DNA of 64,000 bases from an uncultured Lachnospiraceae bacterium (GCA_910588565.1 CAJUPF010000006.1:531-64530); one strand, 5' to 3'; shown: positions 148 through 20,110, counted from the first letter of the stretch. Translations and numbers: made by a program. The notes: generated by a model from the letters alone, not told the origin.

Positions 148-1296
148 GTGCATCTTATGGAACAAATGACTATAACTGCAAAAGTTCAAATAGCCGTATC
201 GGATACAGATAAAGTTTTGCTTAATGAAACTATGTCTGTTTATCGTGATGCCTGCAATTATGTTTCTGACTATGTATTCCGTACACACGACCTGAAACAG
301 TTTTCACTTAACAAGGTTTTGTACTCTGCTCTCCGGGAAATGTTTGGCCTTAAGTCTTAAATGACCCAGTCTGTATTTAAGACAGTTATTGCAAGATATA
401 AAACCATTCTTGAAAATCAGAATGAGTGGATTAAGCCAGCGTTTAAAAAGCCTCAGTATGATTTGGTTTGGAATAGGGATTATTCCTTAACCCAAAACTG
501 TTTTTCAGTGAATACTCTTGACGGCCGTGTGAAGCTGCCATATTTTACGGAAGGTATGTCCAAATATTTTGACCATACGGTATACAAGTTCGGCGCTGCT
601 AAACTTGTAAACAAACATGGCAAGTATTATCTTCACATACCAGTAACATATGATGTTGAAGAAAATAACATTTCAGACATCTGCAATGTTGTAGGTATTG
701 ACAGAGGCATTAACTTTGTTGTTGCAACCTATAACAGTAATCACAAGTCTGGATTTGTTAGTGGTAAATCTATTAAACAGAAACGGGCTAACTATTCCAA
801 ACTTCGTAAAGAACTCCAAATGTGTCAGACTCCATCTTCTCGAAGAAGAATAAAAACTATTGGTCAACGAGAAAACCGTTGGATACAGGATATTAACCAT
901 CAGGTATCGAAGGCACTCGTTGAGAATAATCCAAAGCATACTCTCTTTGTGTTAGAAGATTTGTCGGGCATTCGTAATGCTGCAGAATGTGTTAGTACGA
1001 AAGACCGCTATGTTTCTGTATCATGGTCGTTTTATGACCTTGAACAAAAACTTATCTACAAAGCCAAACAGAATCTGTCTTCTGTAATTAAGGTAAATCC
1101 TCGTTATATGAGCCAGTGCTGTCCTATATGTGGACATACTGAAAAAGCTAATCGTAATAAGAAGATACATCTGTTTGCTTGTAAGAACTGCGGCTACAAA
1201 TCTAATGATGACCGTATTGGGGCTATGAATCTGTATCGTATGGGAATCAACTATCTTGCTGATAGTCAAGTACCTAATACAGTTGTAGCAGAGTAA
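148..1296 (+). pseudogene. tnpB: TnpB (IS1341/IS605 OrfB-type RNA-guided endonuclease) interrupted by an in-frame TAA at 358-360
   Basis: ORFs 148-360 and 361-1296 are in the same frame. RuvC-like motifs VVGIDRGIN, FVLEDLSGI and SNDDRIGAMN are present, as is the zinc ribbon CPICG...CKNCG. Confidence 0.85.
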
Positions 1297-1645: not shown

Positions 1646-1768
1646 CTGGCTGTTGAATTATAGCTGACATTTATTATAGCTGGTACACAGACGCAGCTTG
1701 CGTAATTTCCCATATGTGTGAAATGTAACCATCAGTTACATAATATAGCACAAGCGGTGAATAAATGG

Positions 1769-1797
1769 TAGATAAAAAAGGAGGAATGTGGTAAGAT
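1769..1797 (+). promoter_or_regulatory. Candidate extended -10 promoter for the ter-like operon leader
   Basis: TAGATA (1769-1774), 17-nt spacer ending in TGG, then TAAGAT (1792-1797). Confidence 0.25.
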
Positions 1798-1803
1798 TTG
1801 TTA

Positions 1804-2041: not shown

Positions 2042-3706
2042 ATGGAACAGGTGATGCGTTTCAGACATAATGTAATGCATGTGAATTCACTCTCTGCGTT
2101 TGAATGTATTAAAGGAGGGGTGAATCAGAATTGTAAGGATGTATATTTTGTCAGGCTGGTGGGCATGAATGATACATTGGTTTCTGATTTGGAAAAAATG
2201 GATTATGATATGACAGTGCGTATGCAGAGCGGGCGGGGGATATACCAGCGCGTACAAAAGCTGCCGGTGCCGGGAAATCCGCAGGAGGCGGCGGAGTATG
2301 AGAAATGTTATCAGGAATGGCTTGAGCAGGGGAAGAAGAAGGCTCTGGCAAAAGTTTTACGGGATCAGGAGGAATATAGCAGCCTGCTTGGAACGGGTAT
2401 CCGTAAAGTAACGGAGTTGTATGCTGCAAACAGGGCGGTCAGTGCGTCTATGGAGAAGAATTTTGTGGTAAAATTGTTGTTCTGGCATGATTTTTTATTG
2501 CAGGATGTGCTGTCTTTGTGGAGCGGGAATCTGTCGGTTAAGCTTGTCCTGGCAAATATCAGCAGGCAGCAGGAGTATTTGTTTGCGTATTTTCTGACAT
2601 TGCTGGGGTATGATGTCTTGTTGGTGCAGAGTGAGCAGGATATTGCAGAGAAGGAAGAGTCGTTAGGACTTTCGCAGAAGATTCAGATTGGGGATTTTAG
2701 AAAAACTGCACTGCCGGAATATCACAGGGAGAAAATTCTGGCGGCTGTCAATGCAAATGTGTCTGCAGTCCGATCCGATAAGAGTGCAGCGTCATCCGTG
2801 TCCCATCCGGTATCGATTGTACATCCGGGACGAAGCCGGGGAGTATCCACGGGTTCAGTACCGTCCGGCCAAAGTGCGGTGGCGACCGGGGGAGCTGCGC
2901 CGCCAGTGGGTTCGGGTCAAAGGCGGGAGGCGTCCCGTCCGGTGTCGATCGTGCATCCGGGACGAAGCCTGAGAGCATCCGCAGGTTCAGTACCATCAGG
3001 CCAAAGTGCGGCGGCGACCAGGGGTTCTGTGCCGCCAGTGGGTTCGGGTCAAAGGCGGGAGGCGTCCCGTCCGGTGTCAATTGCCCATCCGTCCAGAAGC
3101 GCTGCGCCGCATACTTCGGCGGGAAATGCAGCGGCAGAGAAGAGCTTTGAACAGCTGGCACAGCTGGCGTCTTCTGTGGTGATGATTGCGATTCATGATA
3201 AAAAGGGGGATATTATCGGGACGGGCTCCGGGATTATGATTGGGGCAGGCGGGTACATACTGACAAATAACCATGTGGCAAGCGGCGGAAGGTTTTACTC
3301 AATCCGGATTGAAGATGACGATACGGTATATTCTACGGATGAAGTGATCAAGTACCATTCTGTTCTGGATCTTGCTGTTTTGCGGGTTGACCGCAGGCTG
3401 AACCCGCTTCCGGTTTACAGAGGAAAGAATCCTCTGGCCAGAGGGCAGAAGGTAGTGGCGATTGGGAGCCCGCTGGGGTTATTTAATTCGGTGTCCGATG
3501 GTATTATCTCCGGTTTCCGCAAAATAGACGGGGTGGATATGATTCAGTTTACCGCGCCGATTTCCCATGGCAGTTCCGGAGGCGCGGTGCTGAATATGTA
3601 TGGGGAGGTAATCGGGATCAGCACAGCTGGTATCGATGCCGGGCAGAATATCAATCTTGCCATGGGATATGAGTGCATCAATCAATTTATAGCGGGCTTT
3701 GTATAG
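2042..3706 (+). CDS. Fusion protein: YceG-like N-terminal module, a 44-aa tandem-repeat linker and a C-terminal trypsin-like (S1C/HtrA-type, no PDZ seen) serine protease
   Basis: Protease triad contexts are ILTNNHV (His), LDLAVLRV (Asp) and HGSSGGAV (Ser). The N-terminal ~220 aa parallels the N-terminus of the next ORF. The start is uncertain (alternative ATG a few codons in). Confidence 0.75.
   Translation: MEQVMRFRHNVMHVNSLSAFECIKGGVNQNCKDVYFVRLVGMNDTLVSDLEKMDYDMTVRMQSGRGIYQRVQKLPVPGNPQEAAEYEKCYQEWLEQGKKKALAKVLRDQEEYSSLLGTGIRKVTELYAANRAVSASMEKNFVVKLLFWHDFLLQDVLSLWSGNLSVKLVLANISRQQEYLFAYFLTLLGYDVLLVQSEQDIAEKEESLGLSQKIQIGDFRKTALPEYHREKILAAVNANVSAVRSDKSAASSVSHPVSIVHPGRSRGVSTGSVPSGQSAVATGGAAPPVGSGQRREASRPVSIVHPGRSLRASAGSVPSGQSAAATRGSVPPVGSGQRREASRPVSIAHPSRSAAPHTSAGNAAAEKSFEQLAQLASSVVMIAIHDKKGDIIGTGSGIMIGAGGYILTNNHVASGGRFYSIRIEDDDTVYSTDEVIKYHSVLDLAVLRVDRRLNPLPVYRGKNPLARGQKVVAIGSPLGLFNSVSDGIISGFRKIDGVDMIQFTAPISHGSSGGAVLNMYGEVIGISTAGIDAGQNINLAMGYECINQFIAGFV
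2797..3100 (+). repeat. In-frame 132-bp tandem repeat, about 2.3 copies (44-aa unit PVSIVHPGRS...GSGQRREASR)
   Basis: The landmark CCGGTnTC... recurs at 2807, 2939 and 3071, an exact 132-nt period. The block is GC-rich. Confidence 0.9.
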
Positions 3707-3717
3707 GTGAAGAATCC

Positions 3718-6039
3718 ATGTTTGAGCATAAAAAAATACAGCGACTGGAAGATTATTTTCTTCCTCTGGCCAGCCGGAGGGAAAAAGGCGTCTATTTTTA
3801 CAGAATCAATCAGTATAGTGAAGAGACCGGTCAATTTTTAAGAAAATATTATGAAACAGCGAGGCGTTTTGGTGTTATTATAGAGGGAAGAATTCCCAAT
3901 CCGGATGAGAAGAACCTTTCTTATTATGAAGAAGTGATGGGACTGAATTTCCAGCTGAGTATGGGGTTTTTGACTGCGAGCCTGAAAAAATGGCTTCCGC
4001 GGATGAAAGACTGCCAGAGGAACAACGTTGCCGGAGCAATCTACGATTCTCTGGATATACTTCGCCGATCCGGGAAAAATGAAAATATGCAAAAGAATGC
4101 ATATATTAAATTTATGTGCTGGCTGTATTATAAATTTGAGCGGGTGGTAAATCATCTGGGCGAGGAAACAGTGCCGAAACTGTTGTATGAAGGGGAAATC
4201 AGCAAGTATGAACTGATGCTGCTCTCCATTTTATCCCATGCCGGATGTGATATTATTCTGCTGCAGTACAAAGGAGACGGCGCTTATCTGAAATCAGATC
4301 CGCAGTCCCGGTATTCCGAGGTATTTCAGGTTCCGGGCGGCACGTCGTTTCCAGATTACTTTAATCTGAAATGGCTTCGGAATGAGATGTTGTCGCAGGC
4401 CAATACAGAACGGTTATATGGAACCAGACCCCGGCGGCAAAATTGTACCAATGCATGGATAGAAGGGAACGGTTTTGAAGATATTAAAAAAGAGCCAAAA
4501 GACAGAGGCAGCGATCCGAATCTGTTTTATAACTGTCTGATCCGGATCAACGGAGCAGAGGATAAACTGATTTATGAGAATGAACTGTATCAGTTTCAGC
4601 TGGCCATAAAAAAGGCCGGGCGGAAGCTTATGATTGTGGATGAAGGCCTTACGCCCCCTTCGCCGGAAGAGATTGGCAAAATAAAACGGAAAAATATCAG
4701 CCTGGCAGGCCGTCCGCCGGGTACATCTCAAGGTGCATCCGGCGGATATGCATCACAGGATCAGATGATTTTGGATCTTGCCGGCAATATCCGCGCTTCT
4801 AATCGGGAACTGCAGCTGCTGATGCACAAGGCGTTTGTGGATATTCTTCTGGAAGCGGGAAAGACTCCTGGAATCAGCGTCAGCAAACTGACGAATAAAG
4901 CGGTCTATCTGCTTTGCTGGCTGAACCGCTGCCAGCCAGAGCTGTTTTCCGGCTGGAACGAAGGGGATATCAGCTGTTTTATTCTTTTAGGAGGCTGTCG
5001 GAATGAGAATGAAGCATTGTTTTTGAAATTTCTGTCTCATCTGCCAACAGATGTATTGGTATTAAAACCCGATTTGGGCGGCAGCTGTGTTCTGCAGGAT
5101 AATATGCTGTATGAAATCAACTATCCGGATTCCATAGCGGTGAACACATATCCCACAGAAGACGGCGGCCGGCAGGTTGCCACGGCGGCATACCATGCGG
5201 AGCGGGAGCTGGATTCGATTTTGTACCAGGACTCCGGTATGTACCGCAACCGGCAGTATGGCAGGGCGAATACCGTTACCCTGCAGACCACTTATGAAGA
5301 AATTGGAATTTTATGGGATCAGGAATTGAAGTATCGTCCAAGTTTTAGTACAATAGAGGGGGCTGTGTCCGTTCCGGTTTTGTGCGCCAAGGTTTCCGGT
5401 GTAAAAGATGGACAGGTACAGCCGTACTGGTCAGGAATTAAGGAGCTGATTACCCAGGATACACTGGTAATCCGGGGCGTTCCGTTTCTTCAGGCGACAG
5501 ACGCCAATCCGATGAAAGCCTGCGCGGCAGAATTTTTCAAAAATGGAAAACTGCTGAGGGCAAAGATCAAAGCGCATAAGAATTATCCTTATGGCTACCT
5601 GCGGGATGAGATGCAGGAGCATATTCTGGACAAACTGCAGCTTTTGATCCAGCAGAAAACGATTCTGGGTACCTTTGAAACTGGGACAGAATACGCGATT
5701 ATCGCAGTGGTATTGAACCTGCGGCAGGAAATTGTCAGGATGATTCAGAAGTTTGATTTTACAAAGAAGAATCCCAAGCTGATTTATCTGATTACGGCGG
5801 AAGCGATGCTTTCTTTGGAGGACTCGATTCTGGCGGCTTTTTTGAATCTGATCGGATTTGATATTCTGTTTTTTGTACCGACCGGATATCAGAGCGTTGA
5901 GAAATATTTTAACAGGAAAATTATGGAAGAACATCAGATCGGAGAATATCTCTATGATTTACAGGTTCCCGATTTTTCAAGAATTTCTTCCGGCACACGT
6001 CCTTCGTGGCGTGATAAACTATTTAGGAGAGGTAAATAA
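3718..6039 (+). CDS. YceG-like protein of the Ter-associated module, with three internal copies of one helical/beta module
   Basis: Start set at ATG 3718 (MFEHKK) after AGGTGAAG. Repeated pattern h-W-h...K(L/I)hh.G....E.hhL.hL...G.DhhhhhP/Q near aa 140-200, 400-470 and 660-740. Sits with TelA and TerD genes, as in B. subtilis yceC-H. Confidence 0.6.
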   Translation: MFEHKKIQRLEDYFLPLASRREKGVYFYRINQYSEETGQFLRKYYETARRFGVIIEGRIPNPDEKNLSYYEEVMGLNFQLSMGFLTASLKKWLPRMKDCQRNNVAGAIYDSLDILRRSGKNENMQKNAYIKFMCWLYYKFERVVNHLGEETVPKLLYEGEISKYELMLLSILSHAGCDIILLQYKGDGAYLKSDPQSRYSEVFQVPGGTSFPDYFNLKWLRNEMLSQANTERLYGTRPRRQNCTNAWIEGNGFEDIKKEPKDRGSDPNLFYNCLIRINGAEDKLIYENELYQFQLAIKKAGRKLMIVDEGLTPPSPEEIGKIKRKNISLAGRPPGTSQGASGGYASQDQMILDLAGNIRASNRELQLLMHKAFVDILLEAGKTPGISVSKLTNKAVYLLCWLNRCQPELFSGWNEGDISCFILLGGCRNENEALFLKFLSHLPTDVLVLKPDLGGSCVLQDNMLYEINYPDSIAVNTYPTEDGGRQVATAAYHAERELDSILYQDSGMYRNRQYGRANTVTLQTTYEEIGILWDQELKYRPSFSTIEGAVSVPVLCAKVSGVKDGQVQPYWSGIKELITQDTLVIRGVPFLQATDANPMKACAAEFFKNGKLLRAKIKAHKNYPYGYLRDEMQEHILDKLQLLIQQKTILGTFETGTEYAIIAVVLNLRQEIVRMIQKFDFTKKNPKLIYLITAEAMLSLEDSILAAFLNLIGFDILFFVPTGYQSVEKYFNRKIMEEHQIGEYLYDLQVPDFSRISSGTRPSWRDKLFRRGK

Positions 6040-7200: not shown

Positions 7201-7782
7201 ATGCCGATTAATTTATCAAAAGGACAAAAGGTGGACTTGACAAAAGGAAATCCGGGCTTAAAAAATATAATGGTAGGCCTTGGATGGGATGTAAACGCAT
7301 TTGACTCCGGCGCTGATTTCGACCTGGACGCGGCTGCGTTTATGCTGGGTGACAATGGAAAATGCCCGACGGAAAAAGAATTTATTTTTTATGGAAACTT
7401 AGGGCATGCCAGCGAATCTGTACAGCATATGGGAGATAACCTGACCGGGGAAGGCGAAGGGGACGATGAAGAGATTCATGTAGATCTTTCCAAGATCCCG
7501 GCGAATATTTCCAAAGTGGCATTTACGGTTACGATCTATGATGCGGATGTGCGCAGGCAGAATTTTGGCCAGGTATCCAATGCCTATATCAGAATTGTGG
7601 ATCAGACGACCGGGCAGGAGATTATCCGGTACGATCTGGGTGAAGATTTTTCGATTGAGACAGCGATTGTAGTAGGCGAGTTATACCGATACAATGGAGA
7701 ATGGAAATTCAATGCCATTGGAAGCGGCTTCCAGGGCGGCCTGGCAGCGCTGTGCGGGCATTATGGAATAGAAGTGGCTTAA
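7201..7782 (+). CDS. terD: TerD-domain stress protein, paralog 1
   Basis: [15 protein letters not shown]..., [13 protein letters not shown], Ca-binding-type [26 protein letters not shown]. Confidence 0.92.
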
Positions 7783-7805
7783 CAGGACAAGAAAGGAGAG
7801 GCGCT

Positions 7806-8387
7806 ATGCCAGTTAGTTTGCAGAAGGGGCAGAAGGTTAATCTTACGAAAGGAAATCCGGGGCTTAGCAAGGTAGTTGTAGGCCTGGGATGGGACGTCAA
7901 TGCCTTTGATACAGGCGGAGATTTTGATTTGGATGCGGCGGCATTTTTGCTGACGGACGATGGGAGAGTAACAGGCTCGCAGGATTTTGTGTTTTATGGG
8001 AACCTGAAACATCCTTCCGGCAGTGTGGAGCATATAGGAGATAACCTGACAGGAGCCGGAGAAGGGGATGACGAGCAAATCCGAATCGATTTGTCTTTGG
8101 TTCCTGCGAATATTACCAAAATTGCGTTTACCGTTACCATTTATGAAGCAGAGGCAAGGCGGCAGAATTTTGGCCAGGTAAACAATGCGTTTATCCGGAT
8201 TTATAATGAACAGACAGGAGAAGAACTGCTGCGCTATGATCTGGGCGAGGATTTTTCGATTGAGACAGCAGCTGTATTTGGAGAATTATACAAAAACGGC
8301 GGCGAATGGAAATTCAATGCGATCGGCAGCGGTTATCAGGGCGGCCTGGCAGCGCTGTGCGGAAATTTTGGCGTGGATGTAGAATAA
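7806..8387 (+). CDS. terD: TerD-domain stress protein, paralog 2
   Basis: Start ATG 7806 ([15 protein letters not shown]) after AAAGGAGAGG. Same motif set as paralog 1. Confidence 0.92.
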
Positions 8388-8423
8388 AAGCAGCCAGAGC
8401 AGAACAGGAAGGGGACAAAACAG

Positions 8424-9011
8424 ATGTCAGTTAGTTTGCAAAAAGGACAGAAAGTCAATCTGTCGAAAGAAAATGCAGGATTGTCGAATGTAATTATTGG
8501 TTTGGGCTGGGATGAGGCAACGCGGAAAACAGGATTTTTTGCACCCAAGCCGCAGCCGATTGACTGCGACGCTTCCGCATTGTTATTAAAAAATGGAAAG
8601 CTTACAAATATCGGAGATCTGGTATATTACGGCAACCTGCAGCATCAATCCGGCACCGTGCGCCATATGGGAGATAATCTCACCGGAGCGGGCGACGGGG
8701 ACGACGAGCAGATTCTGGTGGATCTGGCAAGAGTTCCGGCAGAATATGACAGAATTGTGATTGTGGTAAATATTTATGAAGCGTTAAAGCGCAATCAGCA
8801 CTTTGGACTGATTGAAAATGCATATATCCGGTTAGTAGATGGAAGGAATAACAATGAGATGTGCAAATTTAATCTTACAGAAAACTATTCCGGCATGACA
8901 GCCATGATCTTTGGGGAAGTTTACCGGCACAACGGCGAATGGAAATTCAATGCGATTGGCCAGGGAACACAAGATCCGGGTCTGAATGAGCTGAAAAACC
9001 GATATATCTAA
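8424..9011 (+). CDS. terD: TerD-domain stress protein, paralog 3 (more divergent, with an insertion after GLGWD)
   Basis: [41 protein letters not shown]. Confidence 0.9.
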   Translation: MSVSLQKGQKVNLSKENAGLSNVIIGLGWDEATRKTGFFAPKPQPIDCDASALLLKNGKLTNIGDLVYYGNLQHQSGTVRHMGDNLTGAGDGDDEQILVDLARVPAEYDRIVIVVNIYEALKRNQHFGLIENAYIRLVDGRNNNEMCKFNLTENYSGMTAMIFGEVYRHNGEWKFNAIGQGTQDPGLNELKNRYI

Positions 9012-9087: not shown

Positions 9088-9222
9088 ATGTCCAAAAAAA
9101 GACAAAAAGGAGGAAATACCCTTCGGGTATACCTCTATGTCCAAAAAAAGACAAAAAGGAGGAAATACCCTTCGGGTATACCTCTATGTCCAAAAAACAG
9201 AGACAAGAAGGAGGAAATATGA
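9088..9222 (+). repeat. 49-bp tandem repeat (2 full copies plus 1 diverged) covering the Shine-Dalgarno/start region of the ATPase gene
   Basis: ATGTCCAAAAAAAGACAAAAAGGAGGAAATACCCTTCGGGTATACCTCT occurs at 9088 and 9137. A diverged third copy starts at 9186. Each full unit carries GGAGG and the hairpin ATACCC-TTC-GGGTAT. Confidence 0.95.
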
Positions 9223-11924
9223 ATTTTCAAGGATTGAATGATCAGGAGGTTGTATCGTCACGGGAGAAATACGGTTCCAATGTGATCCCTGATTCAGAGC
9301 CGACCACATTCTGGGAGGAGTTTAAGGAGACATTTGGCGATCCCATGATTAAGATACTGCTTGCCATAGCAGCGCTTATGATTGTGATGTTCTTCTTTGG
9401 CTACGCGGAGATTTACGAACCTGTAGGCACCATTGTGGCGGTGCTGATTGTAGCGTTTGTATCGGCAAAGACAGGTGTTGCCAGCGACACCAAGTACAGA
9501 GAATTAAAAGACAGCACAAAAAAAGACCAGTGTAAAGTACACCGGAATGGCATAATCACTGTGATTGATGTGGATGATGTCGTAACAGGAGACAAGATTT
9601 TACTGCAGTCCGGCGATAAAATCCCGGCGGACGGTATCTTAGTTTCCGGGAAACTGGCAGTAGATAACTCCGCTTTAAACGGAGAAGCGGAGGAGTGTAA
9701 AAAAACAGCGGCGACTGCAGATTTTCAGCTGGCGGATAACATTACAGGGGACACTTTTGTAGACAGCCATTCCCTGTTCCGCGGCGCGGTTGTATTTGAC
9801 GGAGAAGGCGTTCTTGACGTCAGAAAAGTCGGATTAAAAACCATGATGGGGAAAATGGCGGAGGAAATGCAGGAAGAAGAGCCGGATTCTCCGTTAAAAG
9901 TGAAACTGGCGAAACTGGCTAATCAGATTTCTACGTTTGGTTATATTGGCGCAATTGTAATCGCGATTTTGTATCTGGCCTATTTTATGATGAATGCAGG
10001 CGGCGTATCCGCATTTTTCGCCCTTGGCGCGGAAGTGGTAATCAAAAAAATCGTAGAAGCCGTATCGCTTGCGGTTGTAATTATCGTCTGCGCAGTTCCT
10101 GAGGGCCTGCCGCTGATGATTTCTCTGGTGCTGATGCAGAATACAAGCAAAATGCTGGCTCATAACGTACTTGTCCGCAAGGCGGAAGGTATTGAAACAG
10201 CGGGTTCTTTAAATATTTTATTCAGCGATAAAACCGGAACCATTACAAAAGGAATGCTCGAAGTCGTGGATTTCTTCACAGCGGACGGCAAATCCATTGC
10301 GATCAGTGATTTAAGCGGGCACAGCAGTGTAAAAGGCTTGATTGACTATGCGATTGGGAAAAATACCCAGTCTATGTTTGACGGCGAACACAGAGTGATC
10401 GGCGGAAACGCTACCGATCAGGCGCTGATGAAATTTATCGGTGAAACGACGTTCCATGCTCTGGAGGCAGATAAAAAATGCCTGGTAACAAAATCCCAGG
10501 GATTTAATTCCACCAATAAATTCAGCCAGGCCAGAATTGACAGCCTGGGAAAAACCTTCTATAAAGGAGCGCCGGAACGCCTGCTTGCTTCTGCGCAGAA
10601 ATATCTGGACGCAGACGGCCAGGTTCAGACAATAGACTCCGCAGTTTTGAATAAGAAAATCGATGATCTGGCTGCAAAAGCCATGCGTGTCCTGGCATTT
10701 GGCTATTCAGAATCTGAGCTTGTAGAAAATAAGATCAACGAAGATATCGTTATTATCGGCCTGGTAGGAATCCGTGACGATGTGCGCGCGGAAGCCAGAG
10801 AAGCGATCCAGGAAGTGCAGAATGCCGGAATCCAGGTAGTTATGATTACCGGAGACCGTTTGGAGACGGCGGTTGCCATTGCAAAAGACGCCGGACTGCT
10901 GAAGGATGATTCTGATAAAGCGCTATCTTCCGCACAGTTAAATGAAATGTCGGATGATGAAGTAAAGAAAATTATTCCTGATATCCGTGTGATTGCAAGG
11001 GCGCTGCCTACCGATAAATCCAGAATGGTGCGTCTGTGCCAGGAAATGAATCTGGTGGTAGGCATGACAGGAGACGGCGTCAACGATTCCCCGGCGCTGA
11101 AACGAGCCGACGTGGGATTTGCTATGGGCAGCGGGACAGAAGCGGCCAAAGAAGCCGGTAAGATTGTAATTTTAGACGATAACTTTAAGTCTATCAAAGA
11201 TGCGATCTGGTACGGCAGGACGATTTACCACAATATATTAAAATTCTGTAAATTCCAGCTTGTGATTAATGTTGCGGCTGTCGTTGTCAGCGCGATTGCG
11301 CCGTTCTTCGGCGTAGAGGAACCGTTAAAAGTAACGCATCTTCTGTTTGTCAATCTGGTCATGGATGGGTTGGGCGCAATTATGCTTGGAAACGAGCCTG
11401 CACTGAAGAAATATATGCATGAGAAACCAAGAAGAAGAGATGAAAGCATTGTAAGCAAAAAGATGATGGCACAGATTATAACTATGGGCGTATGGCTGAC
11501 GATTGTCAGTTTTGCATTCTTAAAGCTGCCGTTTTTTGCCAACCTATTTGGTGGCTGGGCAGTGGATGAGGCCGGACAGGCGCTGCAGGGTGTTCCAAAC
11601 GGTAAACACCTGACAGGATATTTTGTATTATTTATTGTAAGCGCCCTCTTTAACGGCTTTAACGTAAGGGATGACGGATTCCGCATCTTTAAGGGCTTAA
11701 ATGAAAATACCGGATTCTTAAAAGTATTTTTTATCATTATTCTGGTGCAGGCGTTAATTGTAAATGCCGGATTAGTACCCCTTGCTCCGTTTGCCTGGAT
11801 TGGAAATATGTTCAGCTGCGTGCCTTTTGGAATTCAGGGGTGGATTGCGGTTGTGCTGCTGGCAGTGACGATGATTCCGGTGGACTTGATCCGGAAAGTG
11901 ATTGTAGGAGATACGAAATCTTAA
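9219..11924 (+). CDS. P-type (P2, PMCA/SERCA-like) calcium-translocating ATPase
   Basis: Motifs PEGLP, DKTGTIT, MITGD and GDGVNDSPALKRADVGFAMG. Start is ambiguous: ATG 9219 (GGAGG 4 nt upstream) or ATG 9186 (ORF-track start). Confidence 0.9.
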   Translation: MNFQGLNDQEVVSSREKYGSNVIPDSEPTTFWEEFKETFGDPMIKILLAIAALMIVMFFFGYAEIYEPVGTIVAVLIVAFVSAKTGVASDTKYRELKDSTKKDQCKVHRNGIITVIDVDDVVTGDKILLQSGDKIPADGILVSGKLAVDNSALNGEAEECKKTAATADFQLADNITGDTFVDSHSLFRGAVVFDGEGVLDVRKVGLKTMMGKMAEEMQEEEPDSPLKVKLAKLANQISTFGYIGAIVIAILYLAYFMMNAGGVSAFFALGAEVVIKKIVEAVSLAVVIIVCAVPEGLPLMISLVLMQNTSKMLAHNVLVRKAEGIETAGSLNILFSDKTGTITKGMLEVVDFFTADGKSIAISDLSGHSSVKGLIDYAIGKNTQSMFDGEHRVIGGNATDQALMKFIGETTFHALEADKKCLVTKSQGFNSTNKFSQARIDSLGKTFYKGAPERLLASAQKYLDADGQVQTIDSAVLNKKIDDLAAKAMRVLAFGYSESELVENKINEDIVIIGLVGIRDDVRAEAREAIQEVQNAGIQVVMITGDRLETAVAIAKDAGLLKDDSDKALSSAQLNEMSDDEVKKIIPDIRVIARALPTDKSRMVRLCQEMNLVVGMTGDGVNDSPALKRADVGFAMGSGTEAAKEAGKIVILDDNFKSIKDAIWYGRTIYHNILKFCKFQLVINVAAVVVSAIAPFFGVEEPLKVTHLLFVNLVMDGLGAIMLGNEPALKKYMHEKPRRRDESIVSKKMMAQIITMGVWLTIVSFAFLKLPFFANLFGGWAVDEAGQALQGVPNGKHLTGYFVLFIVSALFNGFNVRDDGFRIFKGLNENTGFLKVFFIIILVQALIVNAGLVPLAPFAWIGNMFSCVPFGIQGWIAVVLLAVTMIPVDLIRKVIVGDTKS

Positions 11925-11925: not shown

Positions 11926-12759
11926 ATGATAATGTTTTTTACAGATTTGGACAATACGCTGATTTATTCTTATAAACATGATATCGGAATGGCGAAGCGG
12001 TGTGTGGAGGTGTATCAGGGCAGGGAAATCTCCTTTATGACAGAGGAGACATATACGCTTTTAAATAAAGTAAAAAAGGCGGTAACAATTGTCCCTGTGA
12101 CTACACGGACCGTGGAGCAGTACGGAAGAATTGACCTGGGAATCGGGCAGTTTCCCTATGCGCTGGTGTGCAATGGCGGTATTCTGCTTGCAGATGGAAA
12201 AGAGGACGCGTTATGGTACAGGAAGTCGCTAGAACTGGTGTCAGACTGTACAAAGGAACTGGCGTATGGGGAAGTTTTGCTTGGGCAGGATCGAAACCGC
12301 TGCCTGGAAGTGCGGAATATCCGCGGGCTTTTTCTGTTTACAAAGAGCAAAAAGCCGCTGGAATCTGTGCGTTTCCTGAGAAAAGAGCTGGATACGGCAG
12401 CGGTGGATGTGTTTTGCAATGGGATGAAAGTGTATATTGTGCCAAAGAAATTAAATAAAGGGAATGCGGTATCGCGGCTACGGGAACGAGTGAAGGCGGA
12501 TTATGTGATAGCGGCTGGGGACAGTGAATTTGATGTTCCCATGCTGCTGTCAGCCCAGCTTGCGTTTGCGCCGGATGCGCTTAAAGAGAGTGAAGTATTT
12601 GCGGAAATTCAGAGAAATTCGGATGTACGGCACGGCGGATCGGGAGAAGCGGTGCAATGTGCCGGGGGAGTGCATGAGAATATTGTGTTTATGCGGGGAG
12701 ACAGAGTTTTTTCAGAAGAATTGCTGACGTATATAATCAGAAACTGCCGGAAAGGATAA
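11926..12759 (+). CDS. HAD-superfamily hydrolase (IIB-like phosphatase)
   Basis: Motif I FTDLDNTL and motif IV GDSEFDVPML. Its start is 2 nt after the ATPase stop. Confidence 0.75.
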   Translation: MIMFFTDLDNTLIYSYKHDIGMAKRCVEVYQGREISFMTEETYTLLNKVKKAVTIVPVTTRTVEQYGRIDLGIGQFPYALVCNGGILLADGKEDALWYRKSLELVSDCTKELAYGEVLLGQDRNRCLEVRNIRGLFLFTKSKKPLESVRFLRKELDTAAVDVFCNGMKVYIVPKKLNKGNAVSRLRERVKADYVIAAGDSEFDVPMLLSAQLAFAPDALKESEVFAEIQRNSDVRHGGSGEAVQCAGGVHENIVFMRGDRVFSEELLTYIIRNCRKG

Positions 12760-13222: not shown

Positions 13223-13735
13223 GTGGCTAGTTTAATGGATAATCTTGTAGAAGTCTTAGAAGAAGAAAATACCCAGTATGAGAAGCTTGTGGAATTATCC
13301 AAAGATAAGAAGCAGGCGATCATTCAGGCGGATATCGCTGCGTTAGAGAAGATCACGGAACAGGAGCAGGACGTTTCCAGCGTCCTGCTGAACCTTGATA
13401 ACCGAAGGGACGCAGTTCTAAAAGATATGGCGGATGTTCTCGGCAAGGATTTTGAAGAGATGACCATTACACGGCTGATTGGGTATTTAGAACAGCAGCC
13501 AAAAGAGCAGGAACGCCTGTCACGGATTCGTGCCAAGATCCTGACGACAGGGAATCAGATGCAGGAATGGAACAAGCGGAATGAGGCTCTTTTGAATCAG
13601 GCGCTTGAAATGGTAGAATTCGATCTCACCTTGTTTAAAAGCATGCGGCAGGCGCCCGAGACGGCGAATTATGACAAGAATGCTTACAATACGGGTGATC
13701 TGCTGGGAAGCAGCGGATTTGACGCAAAACAATAG
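13223..13735 (+). CDS. flgN: Flagellar export chaperone FlgN-like (GTG start)
   Basis: Helical 170-aa protein between flgM and flgK. N-terminus MASLMDNLVEVLEEENTQYEKLVELSKDKKQAI is FlgN-like. Confidence 0.7.
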   Translation: MASLMDNLVEVLEEENTQYEKLVELSKDKKQAIIQADIAALEKITEQEQDVSSVLLNLDNRRDAVLKDMADVLGKDFEEMTITRLIGYLEQQPKEQERLSRIRAKILTTGNQMQEWNKRNEALLNQALEMVEFDLTLFKSMRQAPETANYDKNAYNTGDLLGSSGFDAKQ

Positions 13736-13746
13736 GAGGAAGAATC

Positions 13747-15495
13747 ATGGCCAATTCAATGGGAAGTTTATTTATCGGGGCGTCCGGCTTACAGACGAGC
13801 CAGAACGCCCTGAATACGACTGCGAATAACCTTTCAAATGTCGATACGGAAGGTTATGTCAGAGAGCGGGTACTGCAGTCGGATCGCAATTATCTTACCT
13901 TCAATACAACGGCTTCCATCAGCCGCCAGCAGTCCGGGCTTGGCGTGACGATCGGGGATGTTGTACATGCGAGGGATATTTTTTTGGATAAAACCTATCG
14001 GACCCAGACAGGGCGCCATGGGTTTTATTCTGCTACATACGAAGCAATCAATGAAGTAGAGACATTGTTCCAGGAATTAGAAGGAACATCATTTCAGGAA
14101 ATTCTTACTGGGAACAACGGTTTATGGGTGGCATTCCAGGAGTTTGCCAAAGACCCGTCCGACAGGACCAATCAGAATCTGGTGATCCAGAGAGCCAGCT
14201 TGTTTGCCAGCAGGGCGGAAGCTGTGTACAGCGGGCTGAAATATTATCAGTCGGATCTGAATCTGCAGATCAAAGAAGCGATCCAGGAAGTCAATGATAT
14301 CGGCGCGAAGCTAAAGCAGTTAAACCTTGACATTATGAAGACAGAAGCCGGCGGCATCGAAACGGCGATGAATCTCCGGGACGTCAGGGATACGCTTTTA
14401 GATGAACTGTCTGCCTATGGAAGGATTGACTACAAGGAACTTGCGAACGGCATGGTCAAGGTGAATTTTGAAGGCGTGCCCTTTGTAGATGAGCTTCATG
14501 TCTATGATCTTGGCATGAAAGAAGATGAGATTACCGGATTTGTCACACCGTACTGGCCTTATCTGTCCGATACGGAAAAAGGCGAGTATTATCTGGCATA
14601 TAATACAGCCGAAGAGATTTCCACAGAGCGAAAGACTGATATCGGAAAAATCAAAGCTCTCCTGTTTGCCAGAGGAGAAAAATATGCAAATTATAAAGAT
14701 ATTGAAAACATTTCCGTACAGAAATACGATCAGACGCTTGGCAATTCCGTGATGATGAATGCACAGGCAGAGCTTGATATGCTGGTGCATACCGTAGTGA
14801 CTAAGATCAATGATCTGTTTGCCCCGAATATTACTTACAATGCACCGATTACCGGAAGGGATGAGAATGGCAATCCGGTATCTTTTCCGCCGGGACAGAA
14901 AATATTAGACGTGGATAACTGCTGTGTGGGTGCGGATGAAGCGCTTCCGCCGCAGGAACTGTTTACCAGAATCGGCTGTTCCCGTTATACAACCGTATAT
15001 GGGGATGATAATAAGACATATTATGTATATAACCAGGAACCGGAAGACGATACTTCCAAACAGTATACCATTGGAAGCATCCGTATCAATGCAAAGCTTT
15101 TAGAGAGCGAGTCGCTGCTTCCGGCATTTGAGCAGAACGGGCGCGAAGGAGAACTGCCCATTGCCTATCGATTGGGAGAAGCTCTGGCGGCATTATGGGA
15201 TGAAGACACCCTGTTCTTAAGCCCTCATGACACGACGCCGTGTACATTCAGTGAATATTATTCCAAAATGACTGGCGAAATGGCTACGTTGGGAGATGTA
15301 TTTGGTTCCATGACGACTGGCTTAGAAGGCACTTCACTGGCCACCAATAACGCGAGACAGCAGATAATTGGCGTATCTTCCGACGAAGAACTGAGCAATA
15401 TGATCAAATTCCAGAACGCATATAATGCGTCCAGCCGGTTTATCAACGTAATCAGTGAAATGATTGAGACGATTATCTACCGGATGGGTTCCTAA
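13747..15495 (+). CDS. flgK: Flagellar hook-associated protein 1 (FlgK family), paralog A
   Basis: N-terminal rod/hook motif TTANNLSNVDTEGY. C-terminal MIKFQNAYNASSRFINVISEMIETII. Confidence 0.85.
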   Translation: MANSMGSLFIGASGLQTSQNALNTTANNLSNVDTEGYVRERVLQSDRNYLTFNTTASISRQQSGLGVTIGDVVHARDIFLDKTYRTQTGRHGFYSATYEAINEVETLFQELEGTSFQEILTGNNGLWVAFQEFAKDPSDRTNQNLVIQRASLFASRAEAVYSGLKYYQSDLNLQIKEAIQEVNDIGAKLKQLNLDIMKTEAGGIETAMNLRDVRDTLLDELSAYGRIDYKELANGMVKVNFEGVPFVDELHVYDLGMKEDEITGFVTPYWPYLSDTEKGEYYLAYNTAEEISTERKTDIGKIKALLFARGEKYANYKDIENISVQKYDQTLGNSVMMNAQAELDMLVHTVVTKINDLFAPNITYNAPITGRDENGNPVSFPPGQKILDVDNCCVGADEALPPQELFTRIGCSRYTTVYGDDNKTYYVYNQEPEDDTSKQYTIGSIRINAKLLESESLLPAFEQNGREGELPIAYRLGEALAALWDEDTLFLSPHDTTPCTFSEYYSKMTGEMATLGDVFGSMTTGLEGTSLATNNARQQIIGVSSDEELSNMIKFQNAYNASSRFINVISEMIETIIYRMGS

Positions 15496-15518
15496 GAATA
15501 AGAAAGAGGTGTTAAGAT

Positions 15519-17372
15519 ATGCCATCAACATTTTTTGGATTAAATATAGCTTCTTCCGCTATGAACGCGTTTCAGGTGGCGGTAAATACAACGGCGAATA
15601 ATATATCAAATGTACAGACGGAAGGTTACAGTAAACAGGTTGCGAACCGGCAGGCGTCCGAAGGGCTTCGGGTCTATCAGAAGTTTGGAATGGCCGGAAC
15701 CGGCGTTACGACGGAATCCATTACATCCTTACGGAGCGTCTACTACGATACAAAATATTGGAACAACCAGGCTTCGGTTGGCAATTATAATACCAAACTG
15801 ACCTATTTGAACCAGATTGAGAATTATTTTATTGACGACGGCGAGACGCAGCCAGGATTTTCCACGATTTTTGCAAACATGTTCAATCAGATGAACGCGC
15901 TGACCAGCGACGCGGGGAATATTGACAGGCGCAAGAATTTTGTCAGTGAGACGCAGAGCTTTGCCTCCTATTTTCATGATGTGGCGGCCGATCTGCAGGA
16001 TTTGCAGAAAGACTGTAATGAACAGATCAGTTCTCTGGTGCAGCGGATCAACGCCAGCACACAGAAGATTGCTTCTCTGACCAAACAGATCAATACCATT
16101 GAGCTTGAGAACGGCATGAGGGCAAATGAGCTGCGGGATCAGCGTGCGCTGATTATCGATCAGATTTCTGAGATAGTGCCCGTCAGTGTAGAGGAAAGCC
16201 CGATTACGAACAGCAATTATCCGGATATGTATCTGGGCGGCACAAATTATATTGTAAAATTAGACGGCCAGACTTTGATTAACAATTATGATTATAAAAC
16301 CCTGACCTGCGTACCCAGGGAGAATAAAGTCAACCAGACCGATGCGGATGGCTTGTATGACATTGTCTGGTCCGACACAGGGATGAAGTTCAATGTTAAC
16401 GCAAAATCGATGAACGGCTCCCTGCGGGCGCTGTTTGACGTCCGGGACGGCAATCACGCGGAGAATTTTCAGGGAGACGTACTAAGCGCTACAAATAAAT
16501 TTATTAAAATAAAACCCAGCACCATGACGACTGTAGAGTCGATGACAATGGCTGCCGAGGGCGTCATTACGATTAAGAACAAAGAATATTACTATTCAGG
16601 GTTTACGGCGGAGCTGGATGAAAATGGTAAGGTAATTTCTTATACGTTTGAGATGGAACAGAGCATGGAGACTTCTGCGGCGGCTGCTGTAATTGGAAAG
16701 AGTGCGCAGATTGGCGCGAGCGTGGAGGCCATGGGAATTCCCTACTATATGGCGCAGATGAGTGAATTTTTACGGTGTTTCAGCGGACGGTTCAATGCAT
16801 ATCAGAAGGGAGCCATGGATCTGAATGAAGATGAAATGGGCGCTTTCTTTGTAGCGACCGGATTTGACGGAACGGAATACAGTTTTAACCAGCATACCGT
16901 AGGGAAAGACGGCGTAACAAGCCAGGATTCTGTGATATCGTCTTCCTCGGACTGCTATTATCAGCTAACGGCGTTCAGCTTTAACGTAGCGGATGCAATT
17001 GTCCGAGATCCTTCAAAATTTGCGACTTCCATGGATGTTACCGGCGATAAGGTCGACGCGCATGAGATCATTGACGAGATGTTAAAGCTGCAGAATGAAA
17101 TCAAGTTATTCCGCGGCGGCAGCGCGTCAGATTTTCTGCATTGTATTTATACCGATATTTCAGTAGATACAAATGAAGCCGAAATTTTCCAGAAAAATTT
17201 TAACGATATTGCAAGTGCAATCACAACCCAGCGGTTATCTATATCAGGCGTGGATGAAGACGAAGAAGCGCTGGATATCGTAAAATTCCAGAACGCATAC
17301 AATCTGGCGGCCCGCATGGTTCAGTGCATGTCGGAAATGTATGATAAGCTGATTCAGGAAACCGGCGTATAA
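15519..17372 (+). CDS. flgK: Flagellar hook-associated protein 1 (FlgK family), paralog B (canonical N-terminus)
   Basis: MPSTFFGLNIASSAMNAFQVAVNTTANNISNVQTEGYSKQ. C-terminal IVKFQNAYNLAARMVQCMSEMYDKLI. Confidence 0.9.
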   Translation: MPSTFFGLNIASSAMNAFQVAVNTTANNISNVQTEGYSKQVANRQASEGLRVYQKFGMAGTGVTTESITSLRSVYYDTKYWNNQASVGNYNTKLTYLNQIENYFIDDGETQPGFSTIFANMFNQMNALTSDAGNIDRRKNFVSETQSFASYFHDVAADLQDLQKDCNEQISSLVQRINASTQKIASLTKQINTIELENGMRANELRDQRALIIDQISEIVPVSVEESPITNSNYPDMYLGGTNYIVKLDGQTLINNYDYKTLTCVPRENKVNQTDADGLYDIVWSDTGMKFNVNAKSMNGSLRALFDVRDGNHAENFQGDVLSATNKFIKIKPSTMTTVESMTMAAEGVITIKNKEYYYSGFTAELDENGKVISYTFEMEQSMETSAAAAVIGKSAQIGASVEAMGIPYYMAQMSEFLRCFSGRFNAYQKGAMDLNEDEMGAFFVATGFDGTEYSFNQHTVGKDGVTSQDSVISSSSDCYYQLTAFSFNVADAIVRDPSKFATSMDVTGDKVDAHEIIDEMLKLQNEIKLFRGGSASDFLHCIYTDISVDTNEAEIFQKNFNDIASAITTQRLSISGVDEDEEALDIVKFQNAYNLAARMVQCMSEMYDKLIQETGV

Positions 17373-17385
17373 TAGGAGGTAGGCT

Positions 17386-18903
17386 ATGCGAATAACTAAT
17401 AATATGATGATTAAAAATACAGCGGCCAATATCAACGGCAATAAAGGCAATGTCCTGGATCTGAATAATCAGATGGCGTCGCAGAAAAAGATACAGCGGC
17501 CGTCCCAGGACCCGGTTATTGCAATCCGTGCGCTGCGTCTTAGGACTTCTTTAAGTAAGATTAACCAGTATTATGAGAAAAACATCCCGGATGTACAAAC
17601 CTGGTTTGAAAATACGGAGACGTCCTTGAAAAATATGAACAAAATCCTGACAGATATCCGTACCCAGTGTGTAAACGGCACCAACTCTTATCTGACCCAG
17701 GATGACAGAAAGACGATATTATCCGCTTTGACAGCATTAAAGTCACAGATTTACGGCGAAGGAAACTCCGATAATGCAGGAAGAACCGTATTTACCGGAT
17801 ATAAAACCAATTCCCAGCTGACTTTTATGGAGGATGAAGCGGAAACATCCTATAAAATTACACAAAGCTTTTCCTATAAGGATATTGAAGAATACACATA
17901 CTACAGCGGCAGCATCGAAGTGCCTACGACACTGACGGAAGTTCAGGATACAACTAAAATCTGTGAGATTGATAAAGACAATTTTGACAGAATCCGTCTG
18001 GCATATGACGACTTAAAAGAGGATGATTTCAGCGTGTCCTACACGATTGACGGCACTACAACAGAAGACGCTCCGGTTACCATTTATGCTTCTGAGGAAG
18101 AATGGGCAGCAGCAGATCCGAATGGGAAAAACATCAAACAAGTCGGGGAAAACGAGATTATCTTTATCCAAAATACCGGAGATGTGATTTTTGGAAGCGC
18201 CATCAGCCAGGAGTTAAAATCAGGCAGGGCTACGATTGATATCGACTATCAGAAAGAGGGATTTGCCAAAGGCGAGCTCCGTCCGGAGTACTACTACAAC
18301 TGTACGGATGTGAGCGACGCAGCCAATCCAATCGAATACACCAGATATGATGAAAATGGCAAGAAAATCTATGAAGACATCAACTATACGGTAGCTTTAA
18401 ACCAGACCATTACCGTGAATATGCAGGCGGATGAGGTCTTTGATATGAGCATATACCAGGATGTGGTAGAACTTACCGACGCTGTTTCCGATGCCATCAA
18501 TGCCCATGATAAATTAGACCGTCTGAAACTGATGAAAGAAGAAGCGCAGTATGTAGATCATCAGGAAGAAATACAGGCATGGATCGATGCGGCGCAGAAA
18601 GAAGCCGATTATGCGGATAACCGCCTGACGGAGCTTTACAGTGCGGGCATCGGCAACTTTGACAACTATATGTCAAAGCTCAATCAGGCATATACCGAGG
18701 TCGGCGCAAGAGGGGAGCAGCTTGAAATGATAGAAGCCCGCCTCAGCAACCAGCAGCTTGTCACAGAAGAGCTGAAATCTACCAATGAAGATAAAGAAAT
18801 ATCAGATATTATTATTGAATATACAGCAGCCTATAATGCCTATACCGCATCCTTAATGGCATCCAGCAAGATTAACCAGCAGACGCTGCTGAACTACATT
18901 TAA
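17386..18903 (+). CDS. flgL: Flagellar hook-associated protein 3 (FlgL)
   Basis: MRITNNMM... with flagellin-like N- and C-termini (QRPSQDPVIAIRAL..., ...YNAYTASLMASSKINQQTLLNYI). Follows flgK. Confidence 0.88.
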   Translation: MRITNNMMIKNTAANINGNKGNVLDLNNQMASQKKIQRPSQDPVIAIRALRLRTSLSKINQYYEKNIPDVQTWFENTETSLKNMNKILTDIRTQCVNGTNSYLTQDDRKTILSALTALKSQIYGEGNSDNAGRTVFTGYKTNSQLTFMEDEAETSYKITQSFSYKDIEEYTYYSGSIEVPTTLTEVQDTTKICEIDKDNFDRIRLAYDDLKEDDFSVSYTIDGTTTEDAPVTIYASEEEWAAADPNGKNIKQVGENEIIFIQNTGDVIFGSAISQELKSGRATIDIDYQKEGFAKGELRPEYYYNCTDVSDAANPIEYTRYDENGKKIYEDINYTVALNQTITVNMQADEVFDMSIYQDVVELTDAVSDAINAHDKLDRLKLMKEEAQYVDHQEEIQAWIDAAQKEADYADNRLTELYSAGIGNFDNYMSKLNQAYTEVGARGEQLEMIEARLSNQQLVTEELKSTNEDKEISDIIIEYTAAYNAYTASLMASSKINQQTLLNYI

Positions 18904-18917
18904 AAGCGAGGTTTAGG

Positions 18918-19376
18918 ATGAAAGCAGATACAAGAATGTTTGGAGAAATTGATATCGAGGATTCCAAGATTATCCATTTAGAGCAGGGAATTGTCGGATT
19001 CCCGGATATGAAGGATTTTGCATTGATATTTGATGCGGACAGAGGCGAAGAATCTGTGATTAAATGGTTCCAGTCGATGGACGATCCTGTGTTTGCCATG
19101 CCGGTACTCGAGCCGCATGCAATGGCGGAAGACTATGCGCCGGCGATCAGCGATGAACTCTGCGGGACGCTTGGCGGGCTGACCCAGGAAAATGTTTTTC
19201 TCCTTGTGACCGTAACCGTTCCGGAAAATATCGAAGAGATTTCCATTAACTTAAAAGCGCCGATCGTCATCAATACCGACAACAACCAGGCGGCGCAGGT
19301 AATTATGGAACAGGATTATCCGGTAAAATATAAGATTTATGACAGGATAAAACGAGATTCAAAGGAAGGTGAATAG
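18918..19376 (+). CDS. fliW: Flagellar assembly factor FliW
   Basis: FGEIDIEDSKIIHLEQGIVGFPDMKDFALI... and LKAPIVINTDNNQAAQV. Lies directly upstream of csrA. Confidence 0.9.
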   Translation: MKADTRMFGEIDIEDSKIIHLEQGIVGFPDMKDFALIFDADRGEESVIKWFQSMDDPVFAMPVLEPHAMAEDYAPAISDELCGTLGGLTQENVFLLVTVTVPENIEEISINLKAPIVINTDNNQAAQVIMEQDYPVKYKIYDRIKRDSKEGE

Positions 19377-19378
19377 AG

Positions 19379-19594
19379 ATGCTGGCATTGACAAGACGCA
19401 AAGGCGAATCCCTGGTTATCAACAATAACATTCAGATGGATATCCTGGAAATTCGGGGCGATCAGGTAAAAATCGGCATTTCTGCACCAAAAGAAGTCCC
19501 GATTTACCGTAAAGAGGTATACCTGCAGATCGAAAACGAGAATAAAGAAGCCATCAGCACGGAAGCTGCAGAGGCACTGAAAAAATTATTCTAA
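19379..19594 (+). CDS. csrA: Carbon storage regulator CsrA (flagellar type)
   Basis: MLALTRRKGESLVINNNIQMDILEIRGDQVKIGISAPKEVPIYRKEVY. Confidence 0.95.
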   Translation: MLALTRRKGESLVINNNIQMDILEIRGDQVKIGISAPKEVPIYRKEVYLQIENENKEAISTEAAEALKKLF

Positions 19595-19619
19595 AAAAAA
19601 TGCGGCGCTATGCCGATAT
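19592..19619 (+). promoter_or_regulatory. Sigma-28-type promoter upstream of flaG-fliD-fliS
   Basis: TAAA (19592-19595), N16, GCCGATAT (19612-19619). Confidence 0.6.
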
Positions 19620-19669
19620 AGAGAATAATAAATACATTCACTTTTTAAATCACACGGAGGTGGTTAACT

Positions 19670-20098
19670 ATGGCAATAGAAGCAATTACAAAATCGGCTG
19701 TGGCATATCAGGGAAGCGTGTCAGCGCCGGAAGCGCCCAAAGTAAGCAGCGTTGAAAAGACGGGCGGCAATCCCGTAAACACAGAAAGCCCGGCAAGAGA
19801 TTATGCTGGCGCCGTTGTGGCAAGCGGGAGCAATGATGCGGTTAATGTTCGTGCAGACGATGATTCATCTATCAAGGTGAACTCAGACAGCATGAAGAAA
19901 GCTGTGGAGGAGATTAATAAAAATATGATGAACTCCGAAGCGATCTTCGGGATTCATGATAAGACAAATCGCATTACAATCAAAATTATCGATAAGGATA
20001 CGAAGGAAGTATTAAAGGAGTTCCCACCAGAAAAGACCCTGGATATGATTGCCAAAGTATGGGAAATGGCGGGTCTTATGGTGGATGAGAAGAGATAG
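19670..20098 (+). CDS. flaG: Flagellar protein FlaG
   Basis: C-terminal ...FGIHDKTNRITIKIIDKDTKEVLKEFPPEKTLDMIAKVWEMAGLMVDEKR is FlaG-like. Position before fliD. Confidence 0.85.
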   Translation: MAIEAITKSAVAYQGSVSAPEAPKVSSVEKTGGNPVNTESPARDYAGAVVASGSNDAVNVRADDDSSIKVNSDSMKKAVEEINKNMMNSEAIFGIHDKTNRITIKIIDKDTKEVLKEFPPEKTLDMIAKVWEMAGLMVDEKR

Positions 20099-20110
20099 GA
20101 GGAATTAATT

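Follow-up and report, generated by a model that had tools for sequence, protein, structure and literature searches.

Why should a YceG-type domain be joined to a serine protease at the head of a Ter operon? Ter/TelA/TerD operons occur widely, and resistance to tellurite, oxidants, envelope stress and phage has been associated with them for a long time; to our knowledge, no biochemical output has been defined for them, and YceG is without known activity or fold. The question is raised by a 64,000-nucleotide (nt) stretch of DNA from an uncultured Lachnospiraceae bacterium (GCA_910588565.1 CAJUPF010000006.1:531-64530; hereafter the window, with positions counted from its first nucleotide), where two adjacent open reading frames, ORF1 and ORF2, lie at positions 2042–6039. 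An earlier reading, made from the sequence alone (the sequence-only reading), had noticed a YceG-like module once in ORF1, fused to a serine protease, and three times in ORF2, and had supposed a proteolytic output for the stress or defence system concerned. We found that ORF1 is a single YceG_bac domain followed by a disordered linker and a PDZ-less HtrA-type protease with an intact catalytic triad, and that it most likely serves the Ter complex as an optional regulatory arm in the form of a tethered protease, although by a mechanism that we infer.

When the whole proteins were searched, ORF1 matched Pfam YceG_bac (PF14266) at amino acids (aa) 34–198 (nt 2141–2635) with 34.8 bits (E 1.7e-8) against a gathering score of 25, and ORF2 matched in three stretches with 386 bits. 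Searched singly, the N-terminal domain of ORF1 (N-domain) scored 37.6 bits and modules 1, 2 and 3 of ORF2 scored 46.1, 143 and 198 bits, so that all four segments are related and belong to the very family that the sequence-only reading had named; the seven peptide strings it quoted were likewise all located in place. Profile–profile alignment by hhalign joined the N-domain to module 1 with a probability of 92% (E 5.8e-7) over 168 columns, a span that includes the ‘VYF.R’ and ‘P.P...Y.E’ stretches and bears out the proposed alignment of ORF1 and ORF2 over their first ~215 residues. Module 1 was joined to module 2 in the same way (probability 92%, E 5.7e-7), and module 3 was tied to the other segments through the Pfam model only, narrow in-house profiles having given no link.

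AlphaFold predicted one order of secondary-structure elements in all four units, i.e. strand-helix-strand, an insert of two to four helices, and strand-helix-strand again, with a predicted local distance difference test (pLDDT) score of ~75–90 across aa 50–200 of ORF1 and a mean pLDDT of 80 for ORF2. Because of this shared order in the models, the YceG unit is taken as a domain of about 200–250 aa, in line with Pfam; the ~70-aa pattern first taken for the module does recur, but its extent was underestimated, for it is the best-conserved C-terminal core of the larger domain. Judged by its profile, the N-domain is paralogous to module 1 of ORF2, having diverged long ago rather than being a recent copy, since a single-sequence search with it did not return canonical YceG proteins. 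In a YceG family protein of 545 aa, encoded on a Paenibacillaceae plasmid ahead of a TelA gene, the two YceG_bac domains align to ORF2 aa 267–756, which are modules 2 and 3; because the YceG of Bacilli thus comprises these two modules only, the Lachnospiraceae protein carries an extra N-terminal module, and by sequence similarity this is the same module that ORF1 resembles. Sequence and profile searches of the PDB with the YceG domain gave no matches, and assignment to a known fold was rejected, a Foldseek search of the PDB with the ORF2 model having returned only weak generic alpha/beta hits (UvrD, AddB, KaiC and 11-beta-HSD1) with TM-scores of 0.07–0.2. A likeness between the strand-GG-x4-E-helix of module 2 and the LOG/SLOG motif ‘PGGxGTxxE’ found no Pfam (E up to 1) or Foldseek hit and was dropped.

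The start of ORF2 is most likely ATG 3718, which yields 773 aa, and not GTG 3673, which overlaps ORF1 and gives the far less likely 788 aa of the sequence-only reading, because an AGGTGA ribosome-binding site precedes this ATG, a database protein of 773 aa is 100% identical to ORF2 from there on, an independent gene call on the identical contig L075 has the same start, and the consensus of ORF2 homologues begins with the same residues, MFEHKKIQ. These homologues number more than 3,400, are mainly 757 aa long and are named ‘YceG family protein’ by NCBI; ORF2 is thus an ordinary three-module protein for Lachnospiraceae, from a family that is large but functionally uncharacterised. Two peculiarities were observed among them. 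ORF2 itself holds a low-complexity insertion of ~16 aa (GRPPGTSQGASGGYAS; aa 328–343, window 4699–4746) that is predicted to be disordered and is absent from the homologue consensus, and in the 1022-aa homologue P0013 some 250 aa spanning the end of module 1 and module 2 are internally duplicated, by either a recent event or mis-assembly.

The C-terminal part of ORF1 matched Pfam Trypsin_2 at aa 395–526 with 89.8 bits (E 3.7e-25). NCBIfam grouped it with DegP/HtrA/DegS, far under all full-length cutoffs (best score 105.6 bits for degP_htrA_DO, TIGR02037, versus a cutoff of 416.2), and the closest structures in Foldseek were DegS-deltaPDZ and HtrA1, at about E 1e-6. A PDZ domain was absent by Pfam (E up to 1), and only 28 residues remain past the Trypsin_2 match in the 554-aa protein. 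The catalytic His, Asp and Ser are kept in 110, 110 and 111, respectively, of 111 aligned representatives of the fusion family. A simple hydropathy scan found no N-terminal hydrophobic segment, hence no signal peptide or membrane segment, the peak of 1.37 (19-residue window) lying within the protease barrel; this predicts a cytoplasmic location for ORF1, in contrast to classical HtrA proteases. PADLOC matched aa 369–542 to RT-Protease_XI (PDLC02960) with 62.5 bits, and the PHROGs matches were likewise confined to the protease domain.

The linker between the two domains is rich in Ser, Ala, Gly, Val, Arg and Pro, with pLDDT <35 over aa 250–365, and contains a tandem repeat with a period of 132 bp, 2.2 copies and 87% matches (nt 2800–3091, Tandem Repeats Finder), which upholds the fusion through a repeat linker seen by the sequence-only reading. 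Every repeat copy in the window, the partial third included, holds one short motif (Table 1). Across the family the linkers range from 15 to 249 aa and are unalignable apart from this motif: the pattern hydrophobic-x-hydrophobic-Pro-x-Arg/Lys/His occurred 92 times in 65 of 110 linkers, when shuffled linkers led us to expect 3.6 and gave at most 10 in 300 shuffles, and a broader pattern occurred 113 times versus 7.3 in shuffles. The enrichment over shuffles is ~25-fold, with 1–5 copies per carrying member and a consensus of ~[P/G]-[V/I]-[R/K/T]-V-x-[I/L]-P-[P/E]-[R/H]-x-[G/R]-[R/K], roughly PV-x-V-x-I-P-x-R-x-G-R; the near relatives of the window use the variant PVS[I/A]x[K/R/H]P. The pattern was not found in the remaining proteins of the operon. 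Basic residues come after the invariant Pro of the motif; this Pro and the alternating hydrophobic residues ahead of it suggest either a partner-docking strand or a segment resembling a substrate but protected from cleavage by its X-Pro bond. Two observations concern the repeat number: the database protein P0001 is nearly identical to the window ORF1 but is short of one 44-aa repeat, reflecting either copy-number variation or assembly collapse, and public contigs of the window's strain end within the repeat.

How common such fusions are was determined by an exhaustive N-domain search of representatives clustered at 50% identity and by a scan of one genome per species. The search yielded 231 representatives, 145 of them with E 1e-10 or better, and among the 112 matching representatives of at least 400 aa all except one carried the protease domain (111/112), which makes N-domain and protease an obligate pair. 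The scan detected full-length fusions in 67 species-level genomes, nearly all of Lachnospiraceae and many from mouse gut, with Eubacterium sp. 14-2, Dorea sp. 5-2 and Lachnospiraceae bacterium 29-84, 62-26 and X68 among the carriers in culture. The fusion is thus a conserved, lineage-wide gene family and not a unique event; an apparent rarity in a word-indexed search (11 clusters) was rejected as a sensitivity artefact in view of the exhaustive search and the genome scan. Many members fall just under the YceG_bac threshold (those below it include scores of 24.7 and 16.6 bits and cases with no hit), which is probably why the fusion has been overlooked in annotation. Median identities of related loci to the window were 42% for the N-domain and 78% for the protease domain, compared with 58% for YceG, 82% for TelA and 88% for the first TerD copy, and the difference between 78% and 42% is in keeping with a catalytic part under strong constraint and, joined to it, a part that evolves faster and may serve recognition. 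In one lineage (L001:11115-11135; also L002 and L003) the fusion gene is split into 384 and 83 aa by an extra G in a G6 run, and could be a pseudogene or a phase-variable switch there.

The two genes open a tightly packed operon, with 11 nt between ORF1 and ORF2 and 1 nt between the ORF2 stop codon and the TelA gene. ORF1 and ORF2 are followed by genes of TelA, three TerD paralogues, a P-type cation ATPase and an HAD phosphatase, and then by flagellar genes; Pfam agreed with the sequence-only reading that TelA and TerD genes adjoin the pair. In nearly all loci of sufficient length the fusion gene lies directly upstream of YceG-TelA-TerD(x2-3)-P-type ATPase-HAD. About half of them, 33 loci, have in addition a gene of ~200 aa for a rhomboid intramembrane serine protease between the fusion gene and yceG (Pfam 78 bits; e.g. 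L013:11659-12279 and L073:7397-7987), so proteolysis is a recurrent add-on to the Ter operon; the window has no such gene. Because the operon also exists without the fusion, and a rhomboid gene is sometimes inserted, the fusion gene itself is an optional add-on. Just upstream, relatives encode PRTase_2/TRSP, StiP/PELOTA, ATPgrasp_Ter and C-C lyase proteins, the predicted Ter biosynthetic module; at this position the window has a TnpB element and its own edge, and the HAD gene is present in the operon. The TnpB gene (IS605 OrfB/Cas12f-like, window 361–1296, with a structured downstream region at 1297–1700) occupies the place of the relatives' C-C lyase and PRTase genes.

Table 1. Features of ORF1, ORF2 and the operon that they open, in window coordinates
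Feature	Position (nt)	Strand	Basis or remark
Conserved promoter-like block TAGATA-N14-TGG-TAAGAT	1742–1799	+	blastn, alignment; promoter reading by inspection
ORF1	2042–3706	+	554 aa: YceG-type domain, linker, HtrA-type protease; predicted cytoplasmic
ORF1 N-terminal YceG-type alpha/beta domain, aa 1–235	2042–2746	+	Pfam, hhalign, AlphaFold
ORF1 disordered linker, aa 236–365	2747–3136	+	pLDDT, composition
Linker motif copy 1, PVSIVHPGRS, aa 256–265	2807–2836	+	Sequence
Linker motif copy 2, PVSIVHPGRS, aa 300–309	2939–2968	+	Sequence
Linker motif copy 3, PVSIAHPSRS, aa 344–353	3071–3100	+	Sequence
ORF1 S1C (HtrA/DegS-like) serine protease domain without PDZ	3137–3706	+	Trypsin_2, NCBIfam, Foldseek
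Catalytic His411	3272–3274	+	Motif TNNHV
Catalytic Asp443	3368–3370	+	Motif LDLAV
Catalytic Ser512	3575–3577	+	Motif GSSGG
ORF2, three-module YceG family protein, 773 aa	3718–6039	+	Pfam, AlphaFold, gene call
ORF2 module 1	3718–4482	+	Pfam
ORF2 module 2	4483–5262	+	Pfam
ORF2 module 3	5263–6036	+	Pfam
TelA (YceH-like) toxic-anion-resistance protein, 380 aa	6041–7183	+	Pfam TelA, 346 bits
Three TerD paralogues (7201–7782, 7806–8387, 8424–9011)	7201–9011	+	ORFs; Pfam on identical contig L075 and L001
P-type cation (Ca2+-type) ATPase	9186–11924	+	Pfam; sole operon membrane protein in window
HAD-family phosphatase, end of conserved block	11926–12759	+	Pfam, synteny

Taken together, these data suggest, without proving, a proteolytic output of the Ter system. 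In the reading that we prefer, ORF1 would be an optional accessory to the Ter (YceG-TelA-TerD) operon of Lachnospiraceae, an operon for stress or defence; in this subunit, the YceG-type domain replaces the PDZ domain and the secretion signal of an HtrA-type protease. That domain would dock the protease on the YceG/TelA/TerD assembly via contacts like those between tandem YceG modules; the disordered linker would act as a leash, whose motif is either a docking element or an uncleavable pseudo-substrate that silences the protease; and a stress signal sensed by the Ter system would lead the protease to cut one of the components of the complex or some protein in its vicinity. What we infer here comprises the docking to YceG, the regulatory role of the linker, and which substrates, if any, exist; for the whole chain from docking through regulation by leash and motif to stress-triggered cleavage we put the chances at about even.

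A number of observations weigh against it. The gene is dispensable, given its frameshift in one lineage and its absence from some operons: in a 4.99-Mb genome the operon is otherwise the same but the fusion gene is missing, and the G6 frameshift lies inside the protease domain, parts the catalytic Ser from His and Asp, and was seen in three independent samples. About 40% of the family linkers are without a recognisable motif, and since AlphaFold confidence is low for the protease domain and the linker, the model gives no structural hint of the motif reaching the active site. The fold of the YceG domain has no match among solved structures. Nor did co-evolution single out YceG: distance-matrix correlations with the N-domain were r 0.63–0.77 for all operon genes, and partial correlations were equally undiscriminating. 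A mirror-tree partner of the N-domain was sought and rejected, as r was 0.70–0.76 alike for the protease, YceG, its three modules and TelA, and 0.63 for TerD1; a single-reference correlation that seemed to favour TelA probably reflects phylogeny.

The YceG-type domain might instead be a small-molecule sensor, such that the protease is allosterically activated by a nucleoside-like product, predicted for the Ter-linked PRTase, ATP-grasp and HAD genes, or by Ca2+ that TerD passes on, in analogy to the activation of DegS by PDZ-bound peptides. We regard this as unlikely, though it draws on several features of the data, namely the alpha/beta sandwich with conserved acidic and polar residues at strand ends (Asn in a KN/TNK helix, Glu after strand 3 and Asp before strand 4), the PRTase_2/TRSP, StiP/PELOTA, ATPgrasp_Ter and C-C lyase genes immediately upstream in relatives, and a published Ter model that combines a nucleoside-derived signal with ligand-binding Ter proteins (PMC7824862). 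However, no sequence or fold match to known nucleotide-binding families was obtained, the conserved Asn, Glu and Asp are equally compatible with a purely structural role, and the biosynthetic genes lie outside the window, which begins at the TnpB element. Less probable still is a self-contained assembly, in which three ORF1 chains would imitate one three-module YceG and, undocked, either serve cytoplasmic quality control as a protease or compete with YceG. HtrA-type domains trimerise, the protease domain of ORF1 is nearest to the trimeric DegS and HtrA1, one module per ORF1 chain stands against three per YceG chain, and the operon can persist when the gene is lost; yet the strict co-location with yceG-telA in 67 genomes speaks for a role bound up with the operon, and the N-domain resembles module 1 only, not modules 2 or 3.

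A slim chance remains for a combined arrangement, whereby the YceG domain is the receptor of a nucleoside-like or TerD-relayed Ca2+ signal and ORF1 the signal-activated protease effector, with a built-in pseudo-substrate linker and often with a membrane rhomboid as companion. If true, the Ter operon of Lachnospiraceae would constitute an immune or stress pathway leading from a small molecule to a protease, with a logic that might be likened to that of the cyclic-nucleotide-activated proteases of CRISPR type III and CBASS, on an entirely different sensor fold. We disfavour as very improbable, and as much less likely than the foregoing, a housekeeping protease that merely neighbours the operon and whose YceG likeness is irrelevant to Ter function: the modest Pfam score of the N-domain, with some members below threshold, would fit such a protease, but the hhalign probability over the full domain, the invariant operon position and the obligate pairing of N-domain and protease all speak otherwise. 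A conserved variant with a YceG module hard-wired to a protease offers a concrete handle, i.e. a catalytic Ser that can be mutated, substrates that can be discovered and a linker motif that can be tested with peptides, and what the module binds would indicate the role of canonical YceG. Such experiments are feasible because the family is common in mouse-gut Lachnospiraceae, cultured isolates included.

Some further features of the surroundings were recorded. The promoter-like block lies ~45 nt before the start codon in relatives; in the window, a strain-specific hairpin insert of ~200 nt (approx. 1815–2010) separates it from the ribosome-binding site. A riboswitch or leader RNA upstream of ORF1 was considered and rejected, as Rfam gave no match, and minus-strand or alternative-frame ORFs within 2042–6039 (e.g. 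2688–2972 and 2748–3161) were discarded as unsupported by-products of the GC-rich repeat. The P-type ATPase of L040, L043, L045, L060, L061, L065, L068 and L071 is ~33% identical to that of the window, versus ~80% elsewhere, which looks like the exchange, at this position of the operon, of one ATPase paralogue for another in this subset. After the Ter operon come late flagellar genes (window 13223–27781) for FlgN, two FlgK-like proteins, FliW, FliD and two flagellins, among which the gene of a predicted AAA-ATPase, whose C-terminus is a PD-(D/E)XK nuclease domain, is inserted at 23122–24912; the closest relatives likewise have FlgM/FlgN downstream of the operon. Beyond the flagellar genes, a low-GC island (window 28417–60000) that encodes MptE/Maf-like proteins, NeuB, TPP enzymes and glycosyltransferases looks like a flagellin glycosylation locus.

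With regard to known systems, membership of a catalogued defence system was rejected, because PADLOC matched the protease domain only; the YceG, TelA, TerD, ATPase and HAD proteins of the operon matched no model of PADLOC v2. ORF1 resembles the RT-protease of type XI retrons in having a C-terminal trypsin-like domain fused to another N-terminal module in a conflict-type locus, but the similarity is limited to the protease domain, and the operon contains no reverse transcriptase or non-coding RNA. In the literature, we found no description of a YceG-protease fusion or of a Ter-operon rhomboid, with the proviso that a comparative study of Ter systems from 2012 stood outside this comparison and may already list the architecture; nor did we find mention of YceG_bac, or of a rhomboid together with TelA and tellurite. 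That study, by Anantharaman, Iyer and Aravind, reportedly defined the Ter stress-response system by comparative genomics. The Ter/YceGH operon is already known; as far as checked, the protease arm, the module 1 paralogy and the linker motif are undescribed.

The window operon shares TelA, TerD and HAD with the Ter stress-response system; in relatives, the biosynthetic genes lie upstream in addition. The Ter model of a published summary proposes a signal derived from a nucleoside, TerB/TerD proteins that bind ligands, and TelA structures beneath the membrane (PMC7824862), which leaves room for docking or ligand sensing alike; a cytoplasmic serine protease arm and a frequent rhomboid do not figure in that summary. 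Experimental knowledge of YceG is limited to B. anthracis, in which deletion of yceGH made the mutants sensitive to reactive oxygen species and reduced their fitness in models of infection (PMC6813211; PMC11994780). Like the Bacillus yceCDEFGH operon, the window operon has its YceG_bac genes directly upstream of telA and TerD paralogues adjacent. However, YceG of Bacillus has two domains in about 520–545 aa, whereas ORF2 has three in 773 aa and ORF1 one plus a protease; the TerD genes follow telA here and precede yceG in Bacillus; and in place of the TerC protein (YceF) of the Bacillus operon, the window operon has the P-type ATPase and the HAD phosphatase. The protease of ORF1 shares with HtrA, DegS and DegP (MEROPS S1C) the fold, the His-Asp-Ser triad and an appended non-catalytic domain that plausibly regulates activity. 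It differs from them in having no PDZ domain, signal peptide or membrane anchor, and in that its appended domain is N-terminal, cytoplasmic and of the YceG type.

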